From a virus (Duplodnaviria > Heunggongvirae > Uroviricota > Caudoviricetes): a stretch of DNA of 8,652 bases. Position numbers and translations under genes: made by a program. Positions 1,985 to 8,652 of the stretch are shown one piece after another (the stretch's first letter is position 1; every line of letters starts with the position of its first letter). The stretch lies in the IMG/VR virus record IMGVR_UViG_2778261122_000008. The stretch is one strand, 5' to 3'. The notes under the pieces are model-generated. The model was not told where the DNA came from, ran no database searches, and was given only the letters and a program-made list of their open reading frames with translations.

Positions 1985-2450
1985 AATAGCCAATGAATAC
2001 GCAAAGCTGATGGATTCAGATTTAGAGCCAGAGATGATTGCTGACACAATAGAAGGAATGGAAGGAGAATTTACCGATAAAATAGAGCAACTTCTTGCCA
2101 TTATTAAAAATGAATCTGGTTATGCTGAACGCCTCAAGGACGAGGCAAAGTCACTGAATGAACGAGCAGCAGTAATTCAAAATAAGATTGACAGCATTAT
2201 GGCGTATATAGCGTCATCGCTTGAAATGGTTGGCAAGAAAAAGATTCGAGCAGGTATTCACCAGGTAACAATCCGCAAACCGTCAGAAACTGTAGAAATA
2301 ATCGACTCAAGCGCCCTTCCTCCTGAATACGTTGAGTTTGAAACGACAATTAAAGCTGACAAACTGGCAATCAAACACCAACTAAAAGCAGGAATAAATA
2401 TCCCCGGCGCTCAACTCAAAGTTGGGAAACCTTCACTTCTTATCAAATAA
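1968..2450 (+). CDS. Sipho_Gp157-like protein (recombination-module accessory protein)
   Basis: GTG start with GGAGG 6 nt upstream (the track begins at TTG 1962). N-terminus (M)SKLYEIANEY and C-terminus ...NIPGAQLKVGKPSLLIK match my recollection of the Gp157 family, which often sits beside RecT/Erf genes. Confidence 0.6.
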   Translation: MSKLYEIANEYAKLMDSDLEPEMIADTIEGMEGEFTDKIEQLLAIIKNESGYAERLKDEAKSLNERAAVIQNKIDSIMAYIASSLEMVGKKKIRAGIHQVTIRKPSETVEIIDSSALPPEYVEFETTIKADKLAIKHQLKAGINIPGAQLKVGKPSLLIK

Positions 2451-2461
2451 CGGTATCTCCT

Positions 2462-2776
2462 ATGAAAAAGACTCCATGGGAGAAATGGGAAGTCGATTTC
2501 TTGCGCGAAGTGGCGGCGACAATGCCAGTTGAAGTTATCGCTGAAAAACTGGAAAGGACTGAAAAAGCAGTAATGGCGAAAGCAACAAGGATTGGCGCTG
2601 ACATTGTTAGCCGACTTCGTGGAAGACGCTGGACAAGAGCCGAAGTATCACTTTTCGGTAAGTTCTCCGCAGAAGAAATAGCAATTGCAACCTGCCGCTC
2701 AATTTATTCAGTAAGAGCTATGCGATACAAGCTAAAAAAACTCGATGAAGAAAGAGCAGGCATACGAATAAATTAA
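2462..2776 (+). CDS. Hypothetical DNA-binding protein with two tandem HTH-like repeats
   Basis: 104 aa. Internal duplication: WEKWEVDFLREV..PVEVIAEKLERTEKAVMAKATRIG versus RRWTRAEVSLFGKF.AEEIAIATCRSIYSVRAMRYKLKKL. The E-x-I-A...R-[ST]-x-x-[AS]-V pattern resembles sigma-70 region 4 / LuxR / Myb-type HTH. Confidence 0.6.
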   Translation: MKKTPWEKWEVDFLREVAATMPVEVIAEKLERTEKAVMAKATRIGADIVSRLRGRRWTRAEVSLFGKFSAEEIAIATCRSIYSVRAMRYKLKKLDEERAGIRIN

Positions 2777-2792
2777 CATGGAATAATTAACA

Positions 2793-3074
2793 ATGAAGCT
2801 AAACATCGACCTCGGCAAATACGTTATTACCGGAACCAAACACGACCTGATTCTTAATGAAAGAGGAATTATCAAAGAAGGTGAGAATGCAGGGAAAGAA
2901 ACACTAAGCCGTATCGGTTATTACAGCAAGTTTGAGCATCTGGTTAAAGAGTTATGCAACCGTGAAATCCTGTTATCTCAGGCGCAGACGCTACAGGATA
3001 TTCAGCAGCATATCGAGACTTTAGGTGTGTCACTTAGCATGGCTATTGACCAGTTCGTGGAGAGTAAATCATGA
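2793..3074 (+). CDS. Hypothetical phage protein (93 aa)
   Basis: ORF in the co-directional operon. Its stop overlaps the next start (ATGA at 3071..3074). No family recognised. Confidence 0.55.
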
Positions 3075-5809: not shown

Positions 5810-6157
5810 GTGGAAGAAGAAATCTTCACTCGTGAAGAAGCAGCGTCGTATCTGAAGGTAGACAAAGGAACTATCACGCAGTGGATACGAAGTGGACGAC
5901 TTCAGGCCGCAAAGATAAATCCAGATAAACCTAAAAGCCCATATCGCATTTGCAAGTCAGACTGCATTGCGGCGCTTAAGTCTGTGAGACACAATAGCGC
6001 GGTGAATGCGGTTGATGTGCAGGAGGTTAAAGCATGTCAATCAAACTACGCGGTGGCACGTGGCACTGCGATTTCGTCGCGCCAGATGGATCAAGAGTTA
6101 GACGCTCTCTTGAAACATCGGACAAGAGGCAAGCGCAAGAACTTCACGATCGTCTGA
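5810..6157 (+). CDS. xis: Excisionase-like DNA-binding protein (HTH, Xis/AlpA type)
   Basis: GTG start with GGAG upstream. N-terminal FTREEAASYLKVDKGTITQWIRSGRLQAAKI is a typical excisionase-family HTH. Sits immediately upstream of int and overlaps it by 124 nt; the true C-terminus is uncertain. Confidence 0.6.
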   Translation: MEEEIFTREEAASYLKVDKGTITQWIRSGRLQAAKINPDKPKSPYRICKSDCIAALKSVRHNSAVNAVDVQEVKACQSNYAVARGTAISSRQMDQELDALLKHRTRGKRKNFTIV

Positions 6158-7194
6158 AAGCAGAAGCGTGGAGAGTAAAAAATCTCGGAGAATCACCGAA
6201 AAAGCTATTCAAGGAAGCCTGCATACGGTGGCTGCGTGAGAAATCGGATAAGAAGTCCATTGATGATGACAAGAGCATTATATCGTTCTGGATGTTGCAC
6301 TTCAGAGAAACCATTCTCTCTGACATAACAACAGAAAAAATAATGGAGGCGGTAGACGGGATGGAAAACCGCCGCCATCGCCTGAACTGGGAAATGAGCC
6401 GGGACAGGTGTTTGCGGCTTGGCAAGCCAGTGCCGGAGTATAAACCAAAGCTGGCAAGCAAAGGAACGAAGACGCGGCATCTGGCAATACTTCGCGCTAT
6501 TCTCAATATGACTGTTGAATGGGGATGGATTGACAGGGCACCCAAAATATCAACACCACGCGTTAAGAATGGACGAATCAGATGGCTTACAGAGGAGGAA
6601 TCTAAGCGCCTGTTTGCAGAAATTGCTCCTCATTTCTTCCCTGTGGTCATGTTTGCAATCACGACAGGCCTTCGCCGTTCCAACGTTACAGACCTTGAAT
6701 GGTCACAGGTCGATCTGGATAAGAAAATGGCATGGATGCACCCTGATGAAACAAAAGCTGGCAATGCGATCGGAGTTCCTCTTAACGAAACCGCATGCCA
6801 GATATTAAGAAAACAGCAGGGTCTCCATAAGAGATGGGTATTTGTCCACACCAAACCTGCCTACCGAAGCGACGGAACAAAAACAGCAGCGGTAAGGAAG
6901 ATGAGAACCGACAGCAACAAGGCATGGAAGGGAGCGTTAAAGCGGGCAGGCATTAGCAACTTCCGCTTCCATGACCTGAGGCATACCTGGGCAAGCTGGC
7001 TGGTTCAGTCCGGTGTCTCTCTTCTTGCACTTAAAGAGATGGGAGGATGGGAAACTCTCGAAATGGTTCAAAGATACGCCCACCTTTCAGCCGGGCATCT
7101 CACCGAGCACGCTAGCAAAATCGATGCGATTATAAGTCGCAATGGCACAAATACGGCACAAGAGGAGAACGTGGTTTACTTAAATGTGAGGTAA
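6034..7194 (+). CDS. int: Tyrosine-type site-specific integrase
   Basis: 386 aa with AGGAGG 7 nt upstream. C-terminal catalytic signature TGLRRSNV...HDLRHTWAS...LEMVQRYAHL (R...HxxR...Y). Ends 14 bp from the tRNA 3' end. Confidence 0.9.
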   Translation: MSIKLRGGTWHCDFVAPDGSRVRRSLETSDKRQAQELHDRLKAEAWRVKNLGESPKKLFKEACIRWLREKSDKKSIDDDKSIISFWMLHFRETILSDITTEKIMEAVDGMENRRHRLNWEMSRDRCLRLGKPVPEYKPKLASKGTKTRHLAILRAILNMTVEWGWIDRAPKISTPRVKNGRIRWLTEEESKRLFAEIAPHFFPVVMFAITTGLRRSNVTDLEWSQVDLDKKMAWMHPDETKAGNAIGVPLNETACQILRKQQGLHKRWVFVHTKPAYRSDGTKTAAVRKMRTDSNKAWKGALKRAGISNFRFHDLRHTWASWLVQSGVSLLALKEMGGWETLEMVQRYAHLSAGHLTEHASKIDAIISRNGTNTAQEENVVYLNVR

Positions 7195-7225
7195 CTTATT
7201 GATTTAAATGGTGCCGATAATAGGA
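7195..7225. other. Probable prophage attachment junction (att core overlapping the tRNA-Thr 3' end)
   Basis: Inferred from the int-tRNA arrangement. The core cannot be delimited without the other prophage end or an empty-site sequence. Confidence 0.3.
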
Positions 7226-7284
7226 GTCGAACCTACGACCTTCGCATTACGAATGCGCTGCTCTACCAACTGAGCTATATCGGC
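7209..7284 (-). tRNA. thrW: tRNA-Thr (anticodon CGU)
   Basis: The reverse complement reads GCCGATATAGCTCAGTTGGTAGAGCAGCGCATTCGTAATGCGAAGGTCGTAGGTTCGACTCCTATTATCGGCACCA (76 nt). It has a 7-bp acceptor stem GCCGATA/TATCGGC, a D-arm, the anticodon loop TTCGTAA (CGT), a T-arm GGTTCGACTCC and an encoded CCA. Matches E. coli thrW as I recall it. Confidence 0.93.
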
Positions 7285-7398: not shown

Positions 7399-8652
7399 TT
7401 ACGCACGAATGGTGTAATCACCAATGCCGATCCACTTATAAGTGGTCAGAGCTTCCAGCCCCATTGGGCCGCGCGCGTGGAGTTTTTGTGTGCTTACCGC
7501 AACTTCCGCCCCCAGTCCAAACTGGCCGCCGTCGGTAAAACGCGTAGAGGCGTTAACGTAAACAGCGGAGGAATCCACTTCGTTAACAAAACGCTGGGCG
7601 TTGCGCATATCGCGGGTCAGGATCGCATCGGAGTGTTGCGTGCCGTGTTCACGAATATGGGCAATGGCGTCATCCAGATCGCTAACGATTTTGACGTTCA
7701 AATCTAATGACAGAAACTCATCGTCATACTCTTCGGCTTTAACAGCCACCACCTTCGCGGGGCCTGCCTGCAACTGCGCCAGCGCGGCTGCATCAGCGTG
7801 TAACGTCACGCCGCTTTCCGCCATTTGTTTGCTTAATGCGGGCAGGAAGCTATCAGCGATGTTTTTATTCACCAGCAACGTTTCTACCGTATTACATGTG
7901 CTCGGACGCTGAGTTTTCGCGTTGACAATTACTTTCAGGGCTTCAGCGATCTCTGCACTTTCATCAACGTAAATATGGCATACGCCTATACCGCCTGTGA
8001 TCACCGGGATTGTCGACTGCTCGCGGCACAGTTTATGCAAACCAGCCCCACCGCGCGGGATCAGCATGTCGATGTATTTATCCATACGCAGCATTTCACT
8101 GACCAGCGCACGGTCAGGATTATCAATTGCCTGCACGGCACCCGCCGGTAAGCCGCAGGATTTCAGGGCGTCCTGAATCACCGCTACCGTTGCAGCGTTA
8201 GTGCGACAGGTTTCTTTGCCGCCGCGCAGGATCACCGCGTTACCGGTTTTCAGGCACAGGGAAGCAACATCAACCGTCACGTTCGGGCGCGCTTCATAAA
8301 TCACGCCAATCACCCCCAGCGGTACGCGACGACGCTCAAGACGCAGGCCGCTGTCCAGTACGCCGCCATCGATTACCTGCCCCACCGGATCGGCGAGATT
8401 GCACACCTGGCGCACATCGTCGGCAATGCCTTTCAGCCGTGCGGGCGTCAGTGCCAGACGGTCAAGCATCGCTTCGCTAAGGCCATTGGCACACGCGTCT
8501 GCAACATCCTGCGCGTTAGCGTTGAGGATACTTTCGCTTTGTGCTTCCAGTTCATCGGCGATTTTTTCCAGCACACGATTTTTTTCGCGGCTGGAGAGTT
8601 GCGCTAATTTATACGAGGCTTGCTTCGCGGCAATGCCCATTTGTTCCAGCAT
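7399..8652 (-). CDS. proA: Gamma-glutamyl phosphate reductase (glutamate-5-semialdehyde dehydrogenase)
   Basis: The 417-aa translation starts [21 protein letters not shown] and ends DYTIRA, recognisable as enterobacterial ProA. The start codon is at the window edge and the stop is TAA at 7399..7401. Confidence 0.95.

Follow-up and report, generated by a model that had tools for sequence, protein, structure and literature searches.

The window analyzed here, an 8,652-nt stretch of phage DNA, corresponds to the left arm of a prophage of the P22-like/lambdoid type, and the gene of interest lies in its early-left operon. On the plus strand, a RecT single-strand annealing protein is encoded at 1073-1984 (phrog_148, E 3.7e-92), followed at 1962-2450 by a Sipho_Gp157 protein, also labeled 'Mu Gam-like end protection' protein (Pfam PF05565, E 1.5e-36; phrog_253, E 3.7e-53), and the two ORFs share 23 nt (1962-1984). 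The Gp157 gene is the immediate upstream neighbor of the target ORF at 2462-2776 (+), which encodes a tandem helix-turn-helix (HTH) protein of 104 aa. A DUF5405 protein follows at 2793-3074 (+); it is a variable neighbor, present in 36 of the 80 loci that carry an identical target protein. Beyond it, the plus strand holds several ea-type genes, an Ea22-like protein and DUF551, and then the excisionase (xis, 5810-6157, +) and integrase (int, 6034-7194, +) genes, with the last 124 nt of the xis ORF lying within int, an overlap also seen in P22. A tRNA-Thr(CGT) gene on the minus strand (7209-7284) lies 15 nt past the integrase stop codon and adjoins host proA (7399-8652, -). The location of this tRNA gene between integrase and proA places the prophage at a thrW-type attachment site.

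The target ORF and the protein sequence quoted for it in the earlier note match the window exactly: positions 2462-2776 (+) hold an ATG-started frame of 104 codons plus a stop codon, and both the coordinates and the translation check out. The computed pI of the protein is 10. Compared with the copy in phage SEN22, the gene shows 91% identity at the protein level and 84% at the DNA level with a dN/dS of 0.07, which identifies the ORF as a real gene under purifying selection. A promoter and terminator scan found neither element belonging to 2462-2776, and the target ATG lies only 11 nt past the Gp157 stop codon; the gene is thus read from the early-left transcript. A Shine-Dalgarno-like sequence is absent upstream of the ATG (window 2448-2464, TAACGGTATCTCCTATG), and the 11-nt gap suggests translational coupling or re-initiation. 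An antisense ORF of 53 aa (2443-2604, -) covers the 5' half of the gene. It is most likely a by-product of coding-strand composition, and nothing marks it as a gene.

An AlphaFold2 model built on a 16-member alignment (mean pLDDT 84.9) predicts two separate three-helix bundles. The first HTH unit (residues 4-46; 2471-2599, +; helices 8-17, 23-30, and 34-44) is delimited by the model, by alignment of the two halves with hhalign and by the hhalign match of the unit profile to the GcrA DNA-binding domain (97.5%). Its conserved first tryptophan is W6, and its predicted recognition helix, assigned from the model and the GcrA alignment, comprises residues 34-44 (EKAVMAKATRI; 2561-2593, +). A basic linker (residues 47-55, DIVSRLRGR; 2600-2626, +), recognized by its charge and by a dip in pLDDT, leads into the second unit. 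Extended by one residue (47-56, DIVSRLRGRR), it has a pI of 12, and pLDDT falls to 73 in residues 51-60. The pTM of 0.48 suggests that the two bundles have no fixed mutual orientation. The second unit (residues 56-99; 2627-2758, +; helices 59-66, 70-77, and 81-99) is supported by the half-against-half alignment, by the model and by an HMM of the C-terminal half. It carries the motif W57-T-x-x-E61, and its predicted recognition helix, assigned from the model and its charge, is rich in basic residues (81-99, IYSVRAMRYKLKKLDEERA; 2702-2758, +). The two units differ in charge: the first is nearly neutral (pI 8.1), with a third helix poor in basic residues, while charge calculation shows the second to be basic. 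Nothing follows the second HTH beyond the C-terminus at residue 104.

When the model was searched with Foldseek, no whole-chain match in the PDB reached E ≤ 1e-3, and the top entries, all short of this threshold, included two-HTH DNA binders, e.g., Cbp1, the Pax paired domain, Myb2, and Tc3. The same search of a viral structure library returned 22 small phage proteins at E ≤ 1e-3, and matches labeled 'GcrA cell cycle regulator' and 'D5 protein' appeared at E ~3e-3. The earlier note had described a tandem HTH protein without any other domain, and the model agrees with the fold and unit profile matches in bearing this out. Its proposed check on a predicted structure likewise returned a helix-turn-helix fold, with three-helix units of Myb/sigma-4 type. 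The same note had assigned the segment E-x-I-A...R-[ST]-x-x-[AS]-V-x-x-[KR] to a recognition helix; the HTH itself stands, but in the model the segment takes in helix 2 and the turn together with the beginning of helix 3 and is not the recognition helix alone. The predicted fold class is two three-helix HTH units belonging to the continuum formed by Myb/SANT, the GcrA DNA-binding domain (DBD) and sigma region 4.

That the two units arose by duplication is not apparent from the single sequence. When halves or units were compared by Smith-Waterman or global alignment under four gap settings, with 5000 shuffles as control, z ranged from -0.1 to 0.83, and neither local nor global alignment under any of the four parameter sets rose above the shuffles. 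The register proposed earlier has identical residues in 9 of 41 columns. The repeats had been said to align convincingly, and a self-alignment score no better than shuffled controls had been named as the outcome that would speak against them; for the raw sequence, this is what was found (z ≤ 0.83). At the level of profiles, however, the claim holds. With a family alignment of 16 two-unit homologues (35-90% identity), hhalign of residues 1-50 against 51-104 gave a probability of 95.5%, E 1.5e-8 over 41 columns, in the very register of the earlier note (W6~W57, E10~E61, I26A27~I73A74, R32~R79). The observed score of 38.9 compares with a mean of 8.7 and a maximum of 17.7 for 200 column shuffles of the C-half profile, and an HMM of the C-terminal half detects the N-terminal half of the query itself (E 1.6e-6). 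A phmmer search of 1.84 billion representatives recovered 532 relatives at E ≤ 1e-3, many of them 200-900 aa long with 3-10 separate matched stretches at a period of ~50 aa. In these long relatives, the motif W-T-x-x-E-[DE]-x-x-L...E-I-A-x-x-L-G-R-[ST]-x-x-[AS]-[VC]-x-x-[RK]...L-G recurs in near-perfect tandem at this ~50-aa period.

One could argue that the two halves are alike by chance, without true duplication, as the failure of single-sequence self-alignment to separate from shuffles would allow. The half-against-half profile alignment with its column-shuffle control, the detection of one half by the HMM of the other, the relatives with many repeats and the two matching three-helix bundles of the AlphaFold2 model all speak against this, and make it exceedingly improbable. 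The internal duplication in this 104-aa protein is real at the profile and structure level and leaves no single-sequence signal.

Other members of the wider group carry the unit in larger numbers. Five enterobacterial proteins of 144-154 aa (P0030, P0032, P0052, P0054, and P0056) have a third HTH unit as well as a conserved C-terminal tail, …RLQxNIERNGWDxxDPE…, and repeat number thus varies even among close relatives. Four further proteins (P0057, P0059, P0061, and P0065) are built almost wholly of 5-10 HTH units, and in P0055 (807 aa) a ResIII/Helicase_C helicase is joined to a tandem array of eight near-identical copies of this HTH unit.

Pfam and NCBIfam scans of the query returned only a sub-threshold HTH_12 match and noise, with no Pfam sigma or Myb match even at E ≤ 10. 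A profile of 50 HTH units, compared with PDB sequences, matched c-Myb (8.7e-8), Cbp1 (2lvs, a tandem-HTH CRISPR-repeat-binding protein; 1.1e-6) and GcrA (1.6e-5), gave weak sequence matches to NarL and RcsB, and aligned with the GcrA DBD in hhalign at 97.5%. Taken singly, 14 of the 50 units reach Sigma70_r4_2 in Pfam, 11 reach Myb and 6 reach GcrA. Eukaryotic Myb R2R3/SANT proteins (PF00249, PF13921) consist, like the window protein, of tandem ~50-aa three-helix repeats starting W-[ST]-x-x-E-[DE], and the multi-repeat relatives of the window protein pass Pfam Myb thresholds. Myb repeats have three regularly spaced tryptophans, however, of which the window protein keeps only the first (W6, W57), the later positions being I26/I73 and aliphatic residues. 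Myb R2R3 proteins are moreover eukaryotic, whereas the window protein comes from a bacterial virus and has no Pfam Myb match of its own.

The GcrA DBD (5YIU; PF07750 N-terminus) has the fold common to the units of the window protein, and both proteins contain W-T-x-x-E ... I-A-x-x-L-x-x-T-x-x-A-V-x-x-K-x-x-R-[LI]-G. The GcrA sequence aligned here agrees with the residue numbers in the published structure paper. In that structure, K39 and R42 contact the DNA backbone, while R33 and N34 (also I37 and G38) serve methyl and base reading (PMC5887438). The backbone contacts are kept in the window protein as K40 and R43, but R33, N34, I37, and G38 are replaced by E34, K35, M38, and A39; with E34/K35 in place of R33/N34, an m6A-reading function is not to be inferred. 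Furthermore, GcrA has one DBD, a long linker and a C-terminal domain that interacts with sigma-70 domain 2, whereas the window protein has two DBD-like units. Full GcrA membership was rejected, as the sigma-interacting domain is missing and the methyl/base-reading residues are replaced. In a degraded prophage (L009:5001-6952), Dam-family and C5 DNA methyltransferase genes directly follow a 39%-identical homologue (P0078), an arrangement that is intriguing given the likeness to m6A-reading GcrA, although the window protein has not kept the methyl-pocket residues of GcrA.

Sigma-70 region 4 and LuxR-GerE have an HTH sequence pattern in common with the window protein. For this protein, sigma-70 region 4 ranks structurally below Myb and GcrA, and neither the other sigma regions nor a receiver domain is present; for Pfam sigma region 4, where the cut-off is 25.7 bits, the three-unit relatives reach 21-25. 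Membership in the sigma-70 family (PF04545 / PF08281) was rejected, since there is no region 4 match and the 104 aa leave out sigma regions 2 and 3. The GcrA paper notes a structural likeness of its DBD to sigma-4 (PMC5887438), and the earlier description of the repeats as 'sigma-region-4 / Myb-like' was thus in the right neighborhood, with Myb and GcrA being closer.

The earlier note did not recognize the protein as belonging to a named family, and here the picture has changed. The best PHROG match of the query is phrog_11492, annotated as unknown function (E 4.6e-23), followed by phrog_323, 'transcriptional regulator, D5-like' (E 2.8e-20), to which P22 Abc1 also belongs (E 1.3e-23). In addition, the record of phage Gally already labels an identical protein 'Anti-RecBCD protein 1, similar to P22gp35_Abc1'. 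The 'D5-like' label derives from D5 of phage T5. According to McCorquodale (1979), as cited elsewhere, and a record note, D5 was shown by experiment to bind DNA and is required for replication as well as late transcription. D5 is a more distant relative that has several HTH units of the same type as the window protein and matches the unit profile weakly (hhalign probability 83%). It differs in its length of 255 aa, its larger number of units, its alanine-rich linkers, its origin from a virulent phage and its genomic context.

The kinship with P22 Abc1 is remote. BLASTP of the query against Abc1 gives no alignment at E ≤ 100, whereas hhalign of the two families against each other yields a probability of 95.8% (E 7.2e-9), with 77 collinear columns extending across both units, a signal that is partly generic and much of which could come from the HTH unit of any tandem Myb-like protein. 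Both proteins are small (Abc1, or gp35, has 94 aa), and the AlphaFold2 prediction for a member of the Abc1 family (pLDDT 81.8) has the same 3+3 helix layout as the query, so that both are predicted to contain a pair of three-helix HTH units arranged in the same order. Their genes also occupy the same place in the early-left operon of a P22-like phage, immediately behind the genes for recombination, with the order erf-abc1-abc2 in P22 and recT-gp157-target in the window. The two proteins also differ. The first unit of Abc1 lacks the W-x-x-x-E start found in the window protein, Abc1 reaches the Sigma70_r4_2 threshold (27.0 vs 25.7 bits) and the window protein does not, and Abc1 is partnered with Erf and Abc2, while the window protein accompanies RecT-Gp157 or a RecE-like module. 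Erf, Abc2, and Abc1 are absent from the window and from the 80 related loci, and Abc1 and the window protein were never found together in one genome among the phage records and loci examined. Taken together, these comparisons identify the window protein as a member of the phrog_323 'D5-like' tandem-HTH group that is remotely homologous to P22 Abc1 and holds the equivalent genomic position. With no abc2 or erf present, the anti-RecBCD role is not simply transferable to it.

The sigma match of Abc1 has left its mark on annotation. P22 abc1 (L003:26970-27254) and its RefSeq homologues (P0192-P0207) are named 'sigma-70 family RNA polymerase sigma factor', which is an over-annotation, given that it goes back to the one Sigma70_r4_2 match of a 94-aa protein with no other sigma regions. 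This name, the Sigma70_r4_2 matches of Abc1 and of 14 of the 50 units, and the sigma-4-like nature of the GcrA DBD could all be taken to mean that the window protein mimics sigma region 4 or serves as the decoy suggested in the earlier note, binding the beta-flap of RNA polymerase or a sigma-4-docking factor and competing with sigma-70. We regard this as very unlikely: the query itself has no Pfam sigma match within the E ≤ 10 range, sigma-4 ranks low structurally, and sigma regions 2 and 3 are absent together with the sigma-interacting domain of GcrA. Affinity purification of Abc1 with mass spectrometry (AP-MS) also gave host proteins without a discernible pattern, and no RNA polymerase link was reported (PMC12373910).

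Of 5426 complete E. coli genomes, 299 carry the gene, in every case on the chromosome and under the annotation 'hypothetical protein'; it is also present in 16 phage records that include Gally, mEpX1, HK140, Kapi1, and SEN22. An identical protein is encoded by phages Gally, mEpX1, Louie, and vB_EcoP-683R2, and a 99% identical one by HK140, Dewey, and Kapi1. Synteny was assessed in 80 IMG/VR loci, all with the identical target protein. The order RecT > Gp157 > target is kept in 79 of them and Gp157 > target in the remaining one, and tblastn locates RecT and Gp157 somewhere in all 80, while the genes downstream of the target vary. These 80 loci probably represent one prophage lineage and, sharing an identical protein, do not count as independent evidence. 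In SEN22 (91%), and likewise for homologues at 39-46% identity, the gene follows a RecE-like exonuclease (phrog_412) and a phrog_11517 protein. These cases, with their different upstream module, provide more independent evidence of linkage than the 80 loci do. The gene is thus co-inherited with recombination modules.

The phrog_11517 protein itself (189-199 aa; L011:1932-2501 in SEN22, L006:4414-4998, L004:513-1112) has no match in Pfam or in a PDB sequence search. Its gene, between the RecE-like exonuclease and the tandem-HTH gene, occupies the slot expected for an annealing protein, and it may be an unrecognized single-strand annealing protein.

Several lines of published work bear on what a protein of this kind might do. 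Abc1 aids P22 recombination without being essential (PMC9836394; PMC12315714). More recently, it has been described as an HTH protein that triggers P4-satellite-dependent cell death when expressed alone and that renders several wild strains of E. coli sensitive to phages (bioRxiv 10.1101/2023.04.06.535777; PMC12373910). It was proposed to disturb P4 transcriptional control (bioRxiv 10.1101/2023.04.06.535777), and the host proteins it bound in AP-MS followed no discernible pattern (PMC12373910). The published findings on Abc1 agree with a DNA-binding regulator no less well than with a RecBCD inhibitor. The sequence of the window protein is absent from the supplements of the study that screened accessory genes such as orf126 (PMC12373910), and a literature search on 'phrog_323' found no paper.

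In light of these data, the window protein is probably a two-copy basic HTH protein of the early-left operon that acts as an Abc1-type DNA-binding accessory and/or regulator. DNA binding is plausible from its pI of 10, its basic linker, the placement of K40 and R43 at the backbone contacts of GcrA and its distant kinship with D5, and we infer a two-part binding mode and a biological role along the following lines. Upon prophage induction or phage infection, the protein would be made from the same transcript as RecT and Gp157 and would bind duplex DNA in monomeric form. Helix 3 of each unit (34-44 and 81-99) would enter a major groove and the flexible, arginine-rich linker (SRLRGRR) would lie on the DNA backbone, a two-part binding that may be likened to that of Myb R2R3, the Pax paired domain and the bipartite domain of Tc3. 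As an outcome, phage DNA transactions would be assisted or regulated, as by an Abc1-type recombination accessory, and/or the transcription of the host or of a rival element would be reprogrammed.

The units need not both contact DNA. Eukaryotic SANT domains of this fold bind proteins, and with its pI of 8.1 and without the base-reading residues of GcrA, unit 1 could do so as well, like many SANT domains. One or both units might accordingly serve as a SANT-like adaptor that binds RecT, Gp157, RecBCD or another host factor in place of DNA. The near-neutral charge of unit 1, the few basic residues in its third helix, the lack of conservation of the GcrA base-reading residues, the example of the eukaryotic domains and the tight linkage of the gene to recombination proteins are all in keeping with such an adaptor. 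The overall pI of 10, the basic linker and basic unit 2, the conservation of the backbone-contact residues K40 and R43, and the fact that each of the closest relatives of known structure binds DNA point the other way, and we consider the adaptor quite unlikely.

The main alternative to an Abc1-type accessory and/or regulator is that the protein regulates transcription on its own, at promoters of the phage, the host or rival elements, and has no role in recombination; the position of the gene after the recombination module would then reflect nothing but the gene order of the early-left operon. The HTH fold, the PHROG label 'transcriptional regulator', the transcription-related functions of GcrA and T5 D5 and the proposed disturbance of P4 transcriptional control by Abc1 are compatible with this possibility, as is the location of the gene at a mosaic boundary beyond which the downstream genes vary. 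Against it, the gene keeps its place behind the upstream recombination module across three module types, the promoter scan gave the target no promoter of its own, and P22 genetics link Abc1 to recombination efficiency. It is possible but the less probable reading.

This analysis brings a 'hypothetical' protein of ~5% of complete E. coli genomes together with P22 Abc1, the product of a 35-year-old recombination-module gene that has lately been tied to satellite-triggered death and phage sensitization. The window protein is an ordinary addition to the known Abc1/D5-like tandem-HTH phage proteins and not a new kind of protein. What it contributes is a view of Abc1-like proteins as tandem Myb/GcrA-type HTH proteins that travel with three types of recombination module, and with it the hypothesis that they act by DNA binding rather than by RecBCD binding. 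Gally, HK140, and mEpX1 offer a second, easily handled E. coli model for these proteins. A bolder and rather unlikely extension is that the Abc1-type tandem HTH is the exchangeable last part of recombination modules (Erf, RecT-Gp157, RecE-like) and that its members are DNA-binding reprogrammers of the host or of rival elements, with surface-polysaccharide expression and satellite-phage repression as example targets, as hinted for P22 Abc1. If true, these proteins would make up a distinct class of phage host-takeover and counter-defense regulators, and not recombination factors.
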